Source: Escherichia phage vB_Eco_F22
Direction: 5' to 3' (one strand)
DNA: 64,000 bases
Sequence record: OP870143.1
Positions within the stretch are counted from its first letter, which is position 1. The number at the start of each line of letters is the position of its first letter. The position numbers were made by a program, and so were the translations under genes. This document shows positions 9,012 through 55,116 of this stretch, one piece after another. The notes beneath the pieces are model-generated. The model ran no database searches, was not told where the DNA came from, and saw nothing but the letters and a program-made list of their open reading frames with translations.

Positions 9012-9063
9012 GGGTATCCCTTATTTGGGGTTATAAACCCCGAAAGGAAACCCTCAAGTTTGG

Positions 9064-9091
9064 CCTCCCTATTGAAGGGAGGTCTTTTTTT
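9064..9091 (+). terminator. Intrinsic terminator after the Ig-like protein gene (third of three consecutive hairpins)
   Basis: Hairpin CCTCCC-TATTGAA-GGGAGG followed by TCTTTTTTT. Confidence 0.7.
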
Positions 9092-10168: not shown

Positions 10169-10202
10169 TTAGTAATTCCATTAACTTTAGGAGAGTAAGT
10201 AA

Positions 10203-11255
10203 ATGGCGAGCATTGACTCCTTGACTGTATGTAATACACGCCAAGCCCGTAACTTTATTATCCGTGCCTTACAAGCAGGTAACGTACCGTTCCTGACTTC
10301 ATCGCCGGGCATGGGTAAATCTGCAATTATCCGTTCTGTTGCAGAAGAATTTGGCATGAAGCTGATTGACCATCGTCTATCTACTTCTGCCCCGGAAGAC
10401 TTATCTGGTCTACCATTCCGTAATGGTGACCGTGCAGAGTTTATCCCTTTCGCTGACTTATTCCCTATTGAGGGTGACGAAGTACCGGAAGGTTATAATG
10501 GCTGGCTCCTGTTCCTTGATGAGTTCAACTCAGCTAAGAAAGAAGTAGTAGCTGCTGCATATAAACTGATTCTAGACCGTATGACTGGACAGAAAAAACT
10601 TCACCCCAACGTGATGATTATCTGTGCCGGTAATAAAGCTACTGACCGTGCTATCGTTAACCCTCTAGGTACTGCAATGCAGTCCCGTGTTGTCCACTTC
10701 GAAATGGAACTTAACTTCGACATCTTTGTTGAAGACGTAATGATTCCACAAGAATGGGATGAGCGTCTGGTTGCATTTTTACATGCTAACCCAGGTTATC
10801 TGCACGACTTCGACCCTGCCCATAAGAACAAAACATTCTGTTGCCCTCGTACCTGGGACTTTGTTAATAAAGACCTCAAGAACCGACCAGAAGGTGCTTT
10901 GCCTGATGAAGATTCTATCTACTATGCAGGTCACGTTACTGCTGGTAAAGCTACAGAATTTGTTCAGTTCACCCAGGTATACAATCGTATGATTACGATT
11001 GAGAAGGTAGTCAAAGACCCATTGGGCTGTGCACTACCGGAGGATAATAACCTGTGTTGGGCTACCGTTAACCACCTGGCTAACAAGACTACTGAAGATA
11101 ACTTCGCTGATGTACTTAAGTACATTGAACGCTTTAAAACGTTCACCCATAAGATTCTGTACTTCCGTACAGTAGGCAAAGCATTACCAGAAATTCAGGC
11201 TACCCCTGAATGGCGTAAGGCTGCTGCTAATATCTCTCGTTACATTCACGGATAA
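10203..11255 (+). CDS. AAA+ ATPase, MoxR-like
   Basis: Walker A SSPGMGKSAI, Walker B LLFLDEFN; 350 aa. Confidence 0.7.
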   Translation: MASIDSLTVCNTRQARNFIIRALQAGNVPFLTSSPGMGKSAIIRSVAEEFGMKLIDHRLSTSAPEDLSGLPFRNGDRAEFIPFADLFPIEGDEVPEGYNGWLLFLDEFNSAKKEVVAAAYKLILDRMTGQKKLHPNVMIICAGNKATDRAIVNPLGTAMQSRVVHFEMELNFDIFVEDVMIPQEWDERLVAFLHANPGYLHDFDPAHKNKTFCCPRTWDFVNKDLKNRPEGALPDEDSIYYAGHVTAGKATEFVQFTQVYNRMITIEKVVKDPLGCALPEDNNLCWATVNHLANKTTEDNFADVLKYIERFKTFTHKILYFRTVGKALPEIQATPEWRKAAANISRYIHG

Positions 11256-11262
11256 TCACAAC

Positions 11263-12438
11263 ATGAACCAGATACCTCAGCACACACTTAGTGATGAACA
11301 ACTCATGCGTGAGTATGACCGTATTCAGGCCAAAGCCTTTCTCGGACGTAGTGCAGCGTTTTTTGGTTCATTGCTGTGTAGTCTTAAGTTCTCATGGAAA
11401 CGTGAAGACTGTCCTACCGCATGTACTGATGGGATAGAACTGCATTTCAACCCAGACTTCTTTATCTGGATGTGTCCTGATGCAAGAGAAACAGTATTAA
11501 TGCACGAGCTATGGCATGTGGCATATCTACATGACATCCGTCGTGGAAGCCGTGACCCAGAAGTCTGGAACCAGGCTTGTGACCACTTCATTAACCTTCA
11601 GTTAGAAGAAGATGGTTACAAGTTCACTGGTATCGACGAAGGTATTTGTAAAGACCCTCAATATAAAGGATGGGTCGAAGAAGACATCTACGATGACCTG
11701 ATGAAGAACCCTCAGAAAAGGCAGAAGCCGTCAGGGGGTGCTGGAGCAGGTCTTGCTGGCGACATGAAATCCCCCACTTCGGGACAGTCCCAGGGTGCTG
11801 TCGTCAATAACGTAGTACGTGCAATGCAAAGCCAGAAGATGGCTGGTGGACAGATGCCTGGTAAAGGTGCTGGTCGTATGGAAGAGGTCATTACCCAATT
11901 CCTTAAACCAGTGGTTCCTTGGCAGGAAGTTCTGATGAACTTCTTTACCGACATTGATGACACACATTATACGTGGGCCAGACCTAATCGTCGTTACACT
12001 GACATCTATCTACCTTCACTGGAAGATGATGAAGGACGTCTACGTCACTTAGCCTACTTTGAGGATGTATCTGGTTCCATCAGTAGTGCTGACTCTCTGC
12101 GTTTTAACTCAGAGGTTGCCTACGTTAAGAGCCAGTTCAATCCTAAGAAGATGTCCCTAATTACCTTCGACGATATTATCCAGGAAGAAATAGACATCAC
12201 TGAAGAAGATACTTTTGAAGAGATTAAGATTACAGGTCGTGGTGGTACAAACCTTGAACCAGTACGCGAATGGATTATTAAGAATAAGCCAACCGCTGCA
12301 ATCATATTCTCCGATATGTATGTTCGTCCAATGGAAGAATTGCCATTTGATATTTCCATCATCTGGTGTGTTCTGAATAATCCCAATGCTACCGTACCTT
12401 TTGGGGAGGTAGTTCATATCCCTAAAGGAATGAAATAA
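11263..12438 (+). CDS. VWA-domain protein with N-terminal HExxH metallopeptidase-like region (DUF2201-like partner of the MoxR ATPase)
   Basis: HELWHVAYLH motif; gene pairing with upstream AAA+ ATPase; 391 aa. Confidence 0.5.
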   Translation: MNQIPQHTLSDEQLMREYDRIQAKAFLGRSAAFFGSLLCSLKFSWKREDCPTACTDGIELHFNPDFFIWMCPDARETVLMHELWHVAYLHDIRRGSRDPEVWNQACDHFINLQLEEDGYKFTGIDEGICKDPQYKGWVEEDIYDDLMKNPQKRQKPSGGAGAGLAGDMKSPTSGQSQGAVVNNVVRAMQSQKMAGGQMPGKGAGRMEEVITQFLKPVVPWQEVLMNFFTDIDDTHYTWARPNRRYTDIYLPSLEDDEGRLRHLAYFEDVSGSISSADSLRFNSEVAYVKSQFNPKKMSLITFDDIIQEEIDITEEDTFEEIKITGRGGTNLEPVREWIIKNKPTAAIIFSDMYVRPMEELPFDISIIWCVLNNPNATVPFGEVVHIPKGMK

Positions 12439-12944
12439 TGGTTGTTAATGGTAATTCTCTATATCGCTCATCTCAGTTGCTGGATGTTCCAGACCATAAG
12501 GTATCTGAACATGGTGTAAGCTATGGATTAGGTGAAGCTGGCTACGATATTCGTATCAAACAGGACATTACCTTCTATCACTTATTTGGGTTGATTCCAA
12601 TGGTGAAGGTCGTTGATGGAAATCAAGTATCACGCCATTTCGGTAAGTTCACATTGGCTTCAGCAATTGAGAAGTTCAACATGTCCCCTTCCTGTGTAGC
12701 TATCGTTCACGATAAGTCTACATGGGCAAGACGTGCATTATCAGTGTTCAATACCGTAATAGAACCAGGATGGAAAGGGTATTTGACTCTTGAACTGGTC
12801 TATCATGGTCGTAAGAAACTACATATCCCGGCTGGTGCTGGGATAGCTCAAGTATTATTTCATCTGGTTCAGGAACCTGCTAATTACAACGGCAAGTATC
12901 AGAACCAGGAAAATCAACCAGTAGCTGCAAGAAGCAGTAAATAA
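12438..12944 (+). CDS. dcd: dCTP deaminase / dUTPase-superfamily enzyme
   Basis: GEAGYDIRI, KSTWARRAL, EPGWKGYLTLEL and GAGIAQVLFH motifs typical of the Dcd family. Confidence 0.65.
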   Translation: MVVNGNSLYRSSQLLDVPDHKVSEHGVSYGLGEAGYDIRIKQDITFYHLFGLIPMVKVVDGNQVSRHFGKFTLASAIEKFNMSPSCVAIVHDKSTWARRALSVFNTVIEPGWKGYLTLELVYHGRKKLHIPAGAGIAQVLFHLVQEPANYNGKYQNQENQPVAARSSK

Positions 12945-13571: not shown

Positions 13572-13599
13572 AAGCCCACCTAACCCGTGGGCTTTTTTA
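13572..13599 (+). terminator. Intrinsic terminator
   Basis: Hairpin AAGCCCAC-CTAACCC-GTGGGCTT followed by TTTTTAA. Confidence 0.65.
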
Positions 13600-34461: not shown

Positions 34462-34535
34462 GTCCACTTAGCTTAGACTGGGAAAGCAACCGACTAATAA
34501 TCGGAAGGTCACTGGTTCAAATCCAGTAGTGGACA
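34462..34535 (+). tRNA. tRNA gene (74 nt); anticodon loop CTAATAA, anticodon tentatively AAT; CCA not encoded
   Basis: Manual cloverleaf: acceptor GTCCACT/AGTGGAC (7 bp), D-stem GCTT/AAGC with GG in loop, 4-bp anticodon stem CCGA/TCGG, T-arm ACTGG-TTCAAAT-CCAGT. Confidence 0.5.
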
Positions 34536-34769
34536 CCTATTCAGCAGTAACATAGTCCTGATTGCATAGCACTCTAAAGACAACACTGGTAAGACAGTCC
34601 AGTGGCTGCTAATGTATTGTTATTCCCCTCGACGGGAATTTCGCTAGTGAAGGTAACACTTAAAAATCCAAAGCTACGTCTTACTACTATCGGGCTATCA
34701 ACCCACGGTCGCTTAACCCTATAGCGGTAGTAGTTTGACGGCCTGCCTCGTTGACTGCGTTAAAGTCAC

Positions 34770-53204: not shown

Positions 53205-53846
53205 TTAATCGTTCAGGCTACCAGCAGCAATCTGTGCTTGAGCCAGTTGAGCCAATTCTGCTTCAGTCAGCGGAGGCAATACTTCAATGGAGAACTCACG
53301 TGCTTCTGTTGCACGGATATCCGGTAAGCCATTCTTACCTTTGCGAGTCGTAATGTTGATGAACTTACGCTCTTTAAGGAACTCATAAATACAGTACGGA
53401 ATATGATAACCATTGTCGGTGACTTCACCGAATGGAACAAACTTACGTACAGTACCCATATATTCGTTAGCTACGGTGATAATCTCACCCGGCAGGTCTT
53501 TCTTCTTAGGATCAAGGTTCTGGATACGTACACGAATCAGTCGAGTCTGTTCTGCACGAATCTTCTGACCCAGAGTCATTTTCTTAACACCTGCTTCTTG
53601 TTTTTCACCCAAAGGATTAACAGCAGTTTCTTTTACTTCTGGTTCATCTTTTGCTTGTGCAGCTTCAATCTTCTCACGGAGTTTCTCAACGGAGATGTTG
53701 TTAGAGAACTTAATATTCATCAATGTTGCACGTTGCTTAAGAACTTCAAGTTCGCTAGGCATTGCAATATCGTTAACGGTATCTTCGTTGCCCTGTACGT
53801 CCAGTTCTACGTCAGTGGTCGGTTTATCGTTAATGCTCATGTTCAT
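53205..53846 (-). CDS. Hypothetical structural protein (213 aa)
   Basis: ORF downstream of the capsid gene. Confidence 0.5.
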   Translation of the reverse strand: MNMSINDKPTTDVELDVQGNEDTVNDIAMPSELEVLKQRATLMNIKFSNNISVEKLREKIEAAQAKDEPEVKETAVNPLGEKQEAGVKKMTLGQKIRAEQTRLIRVRIQNLDPKKKDLPGEIITVANEYMGTVRKFVPFGEVTDNGYHIPYCIYEFLKERKFINITTRKGKNGLPDIRATEAREFSIEVLPPLTEAELAQLAQAQIAAGSLND

Positions 53847-53882
53847 ATTTCCTGTGGTTCAACTAGTTTTATTAAGAGGGGG

Positions 53883-53906
53883 ACTTATGTCCCCCTTGTT
53901 TTATTT
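53883..53906. terminator. Strong hairpin downstream of the major capsid gene (orientation ambiguous)
   Basis: Hairpin AGAGGGGGAC-TTAT-GTCCCCCT; T-run is stronger on the + strand reading than on the - strand. Confidence 0.35.
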
Positions 53907-53913
53907 AGGACTA

Positions 53914-55116
53914 TTACAGAGGAGCAACAGTCTTAATCAGAGCCAGACGTTCTGGACGTTTAACCAGGATACCGTAGTACCACTTGATGGAACTGAAGCC
54001 AGTCTCACCATACGGATCATTACGGTCAGCAGTTTCTCGACCAGGCATCTTAGTCATGATGGAGAACTTAACAGACTTACCATCAGTCTGGAAGCCAATG
54101 GTAGAGAAGGAGTCATCACCAACTACCAGCATCGGGAATACGTCGTAGTGTTCTTGACCACTAACCATAGAAGAACGATAACCTGGGTTAGTAGTAACCT
54201 GAGCACCAGCACCTGCCCAATGCAGCATTTCTGGAACCTGGATAATACGGAACTTGTCGATACAACCAATCTCACCATTCATCAGAGTACCAGCATCAGC
54301 ATAGTGCTGAACCTCGATGAATGCTTTGTTACCGAACAGGTCTTTCATCGCTTTCAGTTCTGGAACCAGTTCAGAACCAACGTACATTACACGAGTACCA
54401 CCAAGTACTTTGGTATCAGTAAGTTTAGAACCAGTGATGATAGTAGTCTGGGTCGGAGTACGGTTCTCAGTAAGAATCTGGTCAAGACGCATCAGGTTCT
54501 TATAAGAAACTACAGACGGGGTAGAACCTTCACCGGTGATGGTAGCATCGGAGGTAGCAGCACCTGCATACAGTACAGTACCAGCAGCAGCCAGCAGGTC
54601 TTTCTGGAGAACAGCTTCAGTCAACTGTACAGCACCGTTCATCAGTTCACGGGACAGGTGCTCTTTCAGTTGGTCGTCAGAATCAAAGTCCAGAGACTCT
54701 TGAGTAAATTCGTAGAAGAAACCGAACTTATGAATGGAACCTTCACGAGACAGACGGGTAAAGCCTACACGGTTAACACGACCACCATTCTCTGTCAGCA
54801 GAGGCAGTTTAGAAGTGATGTTACCAACGTCTCGGGAAGAACCATACAGGTTACCATTAACGATGGTAGCACCCTTAGCATCAATACCCTGGTCGTTGAT
54901 GTTCTTATCATCAAGCAGTGGGACGTACTCATACACCTTAACAGTCTTACCATAGTTCTTCGGCATGTTAATGGTGTTAGCCAGTGGCATGAAATACTGG
55001 TCTTTACGGGACTGAATAATAGCTTTCTTCAGCCAGTAATAGGTATTCATCTGGTCGGAACCAGCACCATCAATGCTAGATTTCTGGCCGTCAATTGGGG
55101 CGTTATAGTTTAACAT
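53914..55116 (-). CDS. Major capsid protein candidate (N4 gp56-like, 400 aa)
   Basis: Size and position (portal - small protein - scaffold-like - this gene) match N4-like capsid modules; strong hairpin directly downstream. Confidence 0.55.

Follow-up and report, generated by a model that had tools for sequence, protein, structure and literature searches.

The genes gp24 and gp25 of phage N4 are two of only 14 genes common to all N4-like phages, five of which are without a function, and the published list of this core gives them as '24 unknown; 25 vWFA domain' (PMC4193335). A pair of the same design, consisting of a MoxR AAA+ ATPase and a metallopeptidase-vWA protein, has been described in jumbo phages of group 2.2 by Iyer et al. 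2021 (PMC7824862), and MoxR-VWA pairs in general remodel specific protein complexes in a chaperone-like manner, the MIDAS (metal ion-dependent adhesion site) of the VWA domain serving as the protein contact (PMC3893208). Here we analyse the corresponding pair of Escherichia phage vB_Eco_F22, encoded at positions 10203-12438 of a 64,000-nucleotide stretch of its sequence (record OP870143.1; the whole stretch is hereafter called the window), which represents most of a G7C-like coliphage genome (Gamaleyavirus, Schitoviridae, N4-like phages). Similarity together with conserved genome position identifies its two members as orthologues of N4 gp24 and gp25 in Gamaleyavirus, and we use these names for them. 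The pair as such is already known, through the catalogued N4 genes, existing Pfam families and the jumbo-phage architecture recognized in 2021; what is new here is that the genes are strictly paired, that both active sites are conserved without a break, and that the pair occurs in replication modules and on plasmids. The module recurs in jumbo and rV5-like phages, marine viruses, archaeal contigs and conjugative plasmids, and a single function would annotate thousands of genes, many of which are currently mislabelled as 'HNH endonuclease' or 'CobS/CobT'.

Comparison with described systems

The N4 pair has the same gene order, occupies the same site between the RNAPII genes and the dCTP deaminase gene and falls into the same PHROG families; nothing essential differs. 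The group 2.2 jumbo phages share the two-gene architecture, and the homologues in phages A4 and 121Q match both proteins, but the role in virion assembly or processing proposed by the authors does not fit the contexts met here, which are replication modules and plasmids. In the pairs CbbQ-CbbO, NorQ-NorD, RavA-ViaA, CoxD-CoxE and p618-p892 of Acidianus two-tailed virus (ATV), the cofactor lacks a peptidase domain, unlike gp25; the clients of the characterized MoxR-VWA pairs (Rubisco, nitric oxide reductase etc.) are absent here, and the sequence similarity of gp24/gp25 to RavA/ViaA is marginal. CobS/CobT is a frequent annotation for phage AAA+/VWA pairs. However, gp25 has a zincin-like domain where CobT, like BchD of the BchI/BchD pair, has an AAA-like N-terminus, and no large subunit (CobN or BchH) was identified, although no CobN-directed search of the window was made.

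Midasin (Rea1) remodels its substrates by the same principle, being driven by ATP and making contact through a MIDAS, but it is a giant single eukaryotic polypeptide with six fused AAA modules and without a protease, engaged in ribosome assembly and in these respects unlike gp24/gp25. Wss1/SPRTN working with Cdc48/p97 provides a functional analogy alone: the likeness is no better than that to other minimal zincins, the AAA+ partner belongs to a different clade than gp24, and neither DNA binding nor a link to the repair of DNA-protein crosslinks is supported.

Domain architecture of gp25 and gp24

The original prediction, made from the letters of the window, had placed two adjacent open reading frames (ORFs) in this region, the second of 391 aa, and had seen in the latter the string HELWHVAYLH in an N-terminal region followed by a probable VWA domain. 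Both ORFs are confirmed, gp24 (350 aa, an AAA+ ATPase probably of the MoxR/AAA_5 class) at 10203-11255 and gp25 (391 aa, a zincin-VWA fusion protein) at 11263-12438, both on the plus strand, like all further features of the pair described below. The comparison with DUF2201 and VWA profiles suggested along with the prediction bears it out, since gp25 clears the gathering scores of two Pfam models arranged from N- to C-terminus, namely DUF2201_N (193.8 bits against a cut-off of 23.2, E 5.7e-57) and the VWA-like DUF2201 (115.8 bits against 26.4, E 1.7e-33); similarity to both metallopeptidases and VWA proteins is thus present in the second protein. In addition, gp25 matches phrog_1314 with an E value of 1.8e-143.

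The first model delimits a zincin-like putative metallopeptidase domain at residues 17-253 (11311-12021). The predicted string lies inside it at residues 81-90 (11503-11532) and comprises the HExxH zinc-binding/catalytic motif followed by H90. In an alignment of 35 Schitoviridae homologues, 47-87% identical to the window protein, H81, E82 and H85 are invariant, whereas H90 is nearly so, the sole substitute being D. Equally invariant is D107 (11581-11583) of the motif ACDxxxN, in the helix that follows the active-site helix; H90 (H or D) and D107 are both candidates for the third metal ligand. The second model marks a C-terminal VWA domain at residues 263-386 (12049-12420), whose predicted MIDAS motif is complete: D268-x-S270-x-S272 (DVSGS, residues 268-272), T329 and D351 (12064-12315) are all invariant. 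The residues H81, E82, H85, H90 and D107 as well as those of the MIDAS are kept also in very distant homologues from a jumbo phage, an rV5-like phage and a contig of an archaeal metagenome-assembled genome (MAG).

A full-length AlphaFold2 model of gp25 (predicted local distance difference test, pLDDT, 80) places HExxH on a predicted helix spanning residues 72-87 and gives the VWA domain a Rossmann-like VWA fold, which resembles the VWA domains of NorD and BchD. Modelled alone, the N-terminal domain (pLDDT 80.5, predicted template modelling score 0.75) has no close solved relative, and its fold matches are almost all zincin metallopeptidases, including BlaR1 (M56), the minigluzincins selecase, abylysin and jannalysin, M48 peptidases, Wss1, Spartan and ArdC. 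Weak Pfam matches of gp25 point in the same two directions (Peptidase_M48, SprT-like and PhageMetallopep; VWA_CoxE). No solved structure was matched by sequence with either gp25 or the profile of its N-terminal domain, no NCBIfam family was matched, and in a direct profile comparison with Escherichia coli ViaA the motifs align with weak statistics. Inside the zincin domain, a Gly-rich loop at residues 150-175 (11710-11787) is poorly conserved, with a variable alignment, and modelled with low confidence (pLDDT below 50 at residues 158-165). Its residue D167, invariant in Schitoviridae and found in three distant homologues, was considered as an internal pseudo-ligand for the MIDAS or the zinc site and dropped, being present in 40 of 79 wider homologues.

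The partner protein gp24 matches phrog_1297 ('ATPase') with an E value of 5.8e-134 and the generic Pfam family AAA with one of 2.1e-6. Across 34 Schitoviridae homologues (in the same 47-87% range of identity), G38, K39 and S40 of Walker A (SSPGMGKS, residues 33-40; 10299-10322) and D106 and E107 of Walker B (LLFLDE, residues 102-107; 10506-10523) are invariant, as are N144, R162 (in QSR) and R216 (in CPRTW), which span 10632-10850 and, from their positions in the AAA+ fold, would be the sensor-1 residue, a putative arginine finger and a putative sensor 2, respectively. The positions of Walker A and B, sensor 1, arginine finger and sensor 2 are thus all intact, and by its sequence gp24 is an AAA+ ATPase in which every residue of ATP hydrolysis is conserved. 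Between Walker A and Walker B lies a further conserved segment, DHRLSTSAPEDLSGLP (residues 56-71; 10368-10415), with D56, R58, T61, P64, D66, G69 and P71 invariant; its location relative to the motifs suggests that DHRLSTSAPEDLSGLP occupies the position of the MoxR-class helix-2 insert.

The label 'MoxR-type' appears to be a fair class label for gp24, from convergent evidence and not from a curated match, because of the motif layout, because, among solved structures, the AAA ring of Midasin is its closest match by sequence (E 5.8e-5), because a homologue with 29% identity on an archaeal-MAG contig clears the AAA_5 threshold (28.4 bits), and because the VWA partner is obligatory. Among the 34 aligned homologues, 24 match AAA_5 (E up to 0.05) and six match bpMoxR.

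Distribution of the two-gene module

A search of 1.84 billion cluster representatives with a profile of the gp25 family gave 21,504 matches at E up to 1e-3, and 733 records of a phage collection carry a gp25 homologue, including those of Schitoviridae, the Asteriusvirus jumbo phages (121Q, K64-1, A4), a 288-kb Pseudomonas phage and Vequintavirinae. A structure search of BFVD adds cyanophage S-TIM5, PBS1, phage G and crAss-like viruses. From IMG/VR, 80 loci were gathered by peptide patterns of the N-terminal domain, and a gp24-type ATPase gene stands upstream on the same strand in all 75 that have room upstream. The MIDAS residues D268, S270, S272, T329 and D351 are present in 78/78 complete viral homologues of gp25, and the viral partner ATPases retain K39 (70/70 distinct sequences), D106 (71/71), N144, R162 and R216 (73/73 each), with either E (61 sequences) or D (10 sequences) at position 107. 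Partner ATPases from outside the N4-like phages are 26-31% identical to gp24 over essentially the whole length. The ATPase gene and the zincin-VWA gene therefore form an obligatory pair of fixed order, well beyond N4-like phages.

The pairing holds for cellular and plasmid homologues, which were found via a distant query. In jumbo phage A4, on an archaeal-MAG contig and on a Burkholderia cenocepacia plasmid, the ATPase gene is next to the one for the gp25 homologue; on a Simplicispira plasmid, it is on the same strand, about 4.5 kb upstream. The pair also occurs on contigs of up to 356 kb with homologues named Poseidoniales or Poseidoniaceae proteins by NCBI/JGI, and on three contigs of uncultured bacteria the ATPase and DUF2201 genes are directly followed by a gene for an ankyrin-repeat protein. 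Altogether 105 plasmid records contain the module; most are megaplasmids and conjugative plasmids of Burkholderiales, and 31 of the records are conjugative. In many non-N4-like loci and plasmids, a third gene is found between the two, coding either for a protein of ~220 aa with an Nmad5 match or for a DUF3150-like protein of ~290 aa (IMG/VR loci L046-L056 and L087-L099; plasmids L101 and L102). The DUF3150-like version also resides on conjugative Burkholderiales plasmids, beside a PRTRC cassette and genes of a type IV secretion system. The window holds no homologue of either the DUF3150-like or the Nmad5-like middle gene (tblastn E above 0.3).

A scan of a genome collection for cellular homologues yielded mostly N4-like contigs binned into MAGs. 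A 297-kb contig of a Roseococcus MAG has an N4-like block of RNAP1, RNAP2, gp24, gp25, dcd and thyX; in the isolate Mesorhizobium yinganensis CN2-181, a 727-kb contig has gp24, gp25, dcd and thyX in the 13-kb stretch examined; and a 123-kb Dyella contig has only gp24 and gp25 of this block. These blocks may be integrated or carried Schitoviridae-like elements, or else assembly artefacts.

Genomic context and expression phase

With RNAP1, RNAP2, rIIA, dcd or thyX nearby, about 30 of the 80 viral loci can be classed as N4-like, and the other 50 cannot. For the latter, we scanned a total of 145 ORFs, taking the three closest ones with a length of 170 aa or more. Their commonest Pfam families are Nmad5 (14), DNA polymerase A (13), its exonuclease (9) and DnaB_C (6), followed by Toprim primase domains (5), DUF5906 (4) and superfamily 1 and PIF1 helicases, and among the PHROG annotations DNA polymerase, primase/helicase, DnaB-like helicase, origin-binding protein, Dda-like helicase and exonuclease V occur most often. 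Capsid, portal and tail families are missing from the top 25 neighbour families of these loci, the lone morphogenesis family there being the terminase small subunit (3/145 ORFs). On plasmids and in one viral locus, the module is near genes for DNA methyltransferases (a cytosine methyltransferase, and DUF4942 proteins, one of them with a methyltransferase domain), addiction modules and a PRTRC cassette.

As regards the genes adjacent in the window, dcd is near the module in 15 of the 80 loci and thyX in 12, all but one of them N4-like; the 50 non-N4-like loci have one dcd match about 5 kb away and none adjacent. The linkage to dCTP deaminase and ThyX is lineage-specific synteny, and a functional link to these enzymes of nucleotide metabolism was rejected, as they are neighbours only in N4-like loci. 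In N4 itself, gp24 and gp25 are middle transcripts, and the lists of virion proteins for roseophages RPP1 and RLP1 contain no homologue of either protein (PMC4193335). The context tentatively suggests a role while a mobile element replicates its DNA or becomes established, and not one in virion assembly; it is the replication-module and plasmid contexts that shift the likely role away from morphogenesis.

A possible mechanism

We are fairly confident of the biochemical architecture, i.e. an AAA+ ATPase combined with a zincin-VWA cofactor. It is reasonably probable, although far from assured, that gp24 and gp25 make up a two-part ATP-driven device for remodelling and cutting proteins. According to this model, the pair would be made in the middle phase of infection, from one translationally coupled operon together with dCTP deaminase, and would act during the replication phase. 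The presumed hexameric ring of gp24 would be joined by gp25, its dedicated cofactor, docking on the ring; Mg2+ bound in the MIDAS would capture a carboxylate of an Asp or Glu residue in the client protein; ATP hydrolysis by gp24 would then pull on, loosen or extract the client; and the zincin domain of gp25 would finally cleave it. Such a sequence of capture, remodelling and cutting is proposed because MoxR-VWA pairs remodel via the MIDAS and because the catalytic Glu of the zincin is never lost here.

A bolder version, which we regard as doubtful for the time being, is that the module represents an unrecognized class of two-component ATP-dependent protease, in which a MoxR-type motor is coupled to a zincin aimed by a MIDAS and with which conjugative plasmids and phages of several families remove a specific, conserved protein obstacle in the replication or establishment of foreign DNA. 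If true, the protease-plus-motor model would define a new type of energy-dependent protease and would point to a not-yet-understood step in the replication or establishment of mobile-element DNA; if obstacle removal is the task, loss of the module would explain the pair's core status in all N4-like phages.

Several points weigh against the remodelling-and-cutting model or its placement in replication. The assignment of gp24 as MoxR-like from its Walker motifs, as given in the original prediction, is reasonable, and gp24 is an AAA+ protein with intact catalytic motifs, but the MoxR/AAA_5 models themselves stay below threshold (AAA_5 at 17.7 bits, E 3.8e-3, against a cut-off of 22; bpMoxR at E 0.033, also below its cut-off), Pfam AAA_3 gives no match to gp24, and a comparison with E. 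coli RavA by hhalign is weak (E 0.0035, probability 9%), although the motifs align. For the 80 IMG/VR loci, the HExxH and D107 counts are biased, as these motifs were the search patterns, whereas those of the MIDAS and ATPase residues are unbiased. The link to replication is guilt by association, and the N4-like phages themselves have the pair 10-12 kb away from their helicase and polymerase genes. No client protein can be named. Finally, in agreement with the original prediction, which had called the function of the pair in phages unknown, our searches of the literature, CRISPRi-ART screens included, found no functional study of N4 gp24/gp25, DUF2201 or COG3864.

Alternative explanations

A function proposed in print is that of a virion-assembly chaperone whose peptidase domain processes structural proteins, put forward for the group 2.2 jumbo phages (PMC7824862) with ATV p618/p892 as an analogy. 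It agrees with the location of the A4 pair just downstream of genes annotated as structural proteins, and the MoxR-VWA pair of ATV acts in tail development, as cited in PMC3893208. As a general role, virion assembly is nevertheless hard to reconcile with the fact that both proteins have full-length homologues on conjugative plasmids and megaplasmids, elements without virions, and on large archaeal contigs; the replication genes and the near absence of morphogenesis genes around the 50 non-N4-like loci speak against it too, as do the transcription of the N4-like genes in the middle phase, outside the late structural block, and the lists of roseophage virion proteins, and we hold it to be improbable. 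The pair might instead be an enzyme activase or an insertase of a metal cofactor that works without proteolysis, like CbbQ-CbbO, NorQ-NorD, CoxD-CoxE, CobS/CobT or BchI/BchD, and matures, for example, dCTP deaminase or ThyX. The overlap of the gp25 stop codon with the dCTP deaminase start, the thyX gene 2 kb downstream of gp25 and a thymidylate synthase gene at the same distance downstream of the pair in jumbo phage A4 would accord with this idea, and so would the NorD- and BchD-like VWA domain, the weak VWA_CoxE match and a weak match of gp24 to the CobS-like phrog_249 (E 6.2e-4). Yet the linkage to dcd and thyX is limited to N4-like loci, no such enzymes are encoded beside the pair in the plasmid and archaeal contexts, and an invariant catalytic Glu in HExxH is unexpected for a mere scaffold, which together make an activase distinctly unlikely. 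Both roles are less likely than ATP-driven remodelling with cleavage.

The remodelling-and-cutting model has a special case in which the client is a host protein, for example of a DNA-targeting defence or of the nucleoid, and the pair is a protease of host takeover or anti-defence. Its presence on several kinds of mobile elements (at least four phage lineages, besides the plasmids) and its proximity to methyltransferase genes, addiction modules and the PRTRC cassette would be understandable on these grounds. On the other hand, no known anti-defence family and no PADLOC model was matched, apart from a 14-bit hit of gp24 to DolB (E 0.0044), with none for gp25; identity of ~50% is kept across Schitoviridae of very different hosts, which looks like a conserved housekeeping interaction and not an arms race; and the N4 genes are middle, not early. 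We regard a host-directed client as rather unlikely. Highly improbable, in our view, is that the HExxH domain is a metal-dependent hydrolase of nucleic acids or nucleotides, comparable to the zincin-like RNase YbeY and acting in the replication module: peptidases (M56, M48, minigluzincins, Wss1, SprT) account for all the better matches by fold and by profile, the HE dipeptide with its invariant Glu is a peptidase signature, and VWA/MIDAS domains bind proteins. Virtually no credence can be given to gp25 being an HNH endonuclease, a label attached to its family in PHROG 1314 and carried by many GenBank/RefSeq phage records. The annotation is all that speaks for it, and it is refuted by the domain analysis, as DUF2201_N and DUF2201 fill the whole length of gp25 and no HNH family of Pfam matches it, even at E up to 10.

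Homing-endonuclease insertions at the locus

The probable source of the HNH label is the insertion of homing HNH genes here in some phages, for example G7C gp24.1 and pSb-1 gp63. In phages G7C (10917-11393 of locus L001) and Mimir124, a free-standing gene for an HNH homing endonuclease is located between gp24 and gp25. In Shigella phage pSb-1, gp24 is interrupted exactly between codons 67 and 68 (corresponding to ~10403/10404 in the window), inside the invariant motif PEDLS|GLP, by an 868-nt insert with an HNH ORF (502-1369 of locus L020). This insert has a sub-threshold match to the group I intron family RF00028 (26.8 bits, E 1.4e-4), and at the gathering threshold Rfam gave no match in the G7C and pSb-1 loci. 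Shortened gp24 proteins forming the clusters P0141 and P0145 suggest that an interrupted allele of the pSb-1 type is common. The window is without the insertions of G7C and pSb-1 and its gp24 allele is uninterrupted; the presence of HNH insertions in G7C and Mimir124 and their lack in the window mark the locus as a hotspot of homing endonucleases in Gamaleyavirus.

In the pSb-1 record, gp25 is additionally spread over three frames across the Gly-rich loop (2675-2749 of the same locus, gp25 residues 150-174) and is annotated as ORFs of 153 and 204 aa. The split could be a sequencing error or real.

Operon layout and other features of the window

The region 10203-12438 is 93-95% identical in DNA to phages E20, SP5M, G7C and about 55 others (93.5% nucleotide identity for the G7C orthologues of gp24 and gp25), and both proteins are 98% identical to database entries. 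The G7C annotation describes gp24 as 'ATPase, similar to N4 gp24' and gp25 as 'VWA-like domain-containing protein, similar to N4 gp25'. A ribosome-binding site, GGAGAG, is located at 10190-10195 (+), 7 nt 5' of the gp24 start codon; the gp24 stop and the gp25 start are separated by a gap of 7 nt, and the stop codon of gp25 overlaps the start codon of gp26 (dCTP deaminase) in the sequence TAATG at 12436-12440 (+). The genes gp24 and gp25 are real and translationally coupled, and their family matches and motif conservation greatly exceed what chance would give. Terminator-like hairpins at about 9062-9084 and 13572-13594 flank one unit comprising three small ORFs, gp24, gp25, the dCTP deaminase gene and two more small ORFs, one of which is Imm-like, and the flanking genes for RNAP1, RNAP2, dCTP deaminase, ThyX and rIIA/B stand in the N4 order.

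Elsewhere in the window, the sole tRNA gene predicted by ARAGORN, at 34462-34537 (+), is one for tRNA-Ile with the unusual anticodon AAT. In the late region, an ORF of 472 aa at 53695-55113 (+) is antisense to one of 400 aa at 53914-55116 (-), either the first or the second being almost certainly a shadow ORF.

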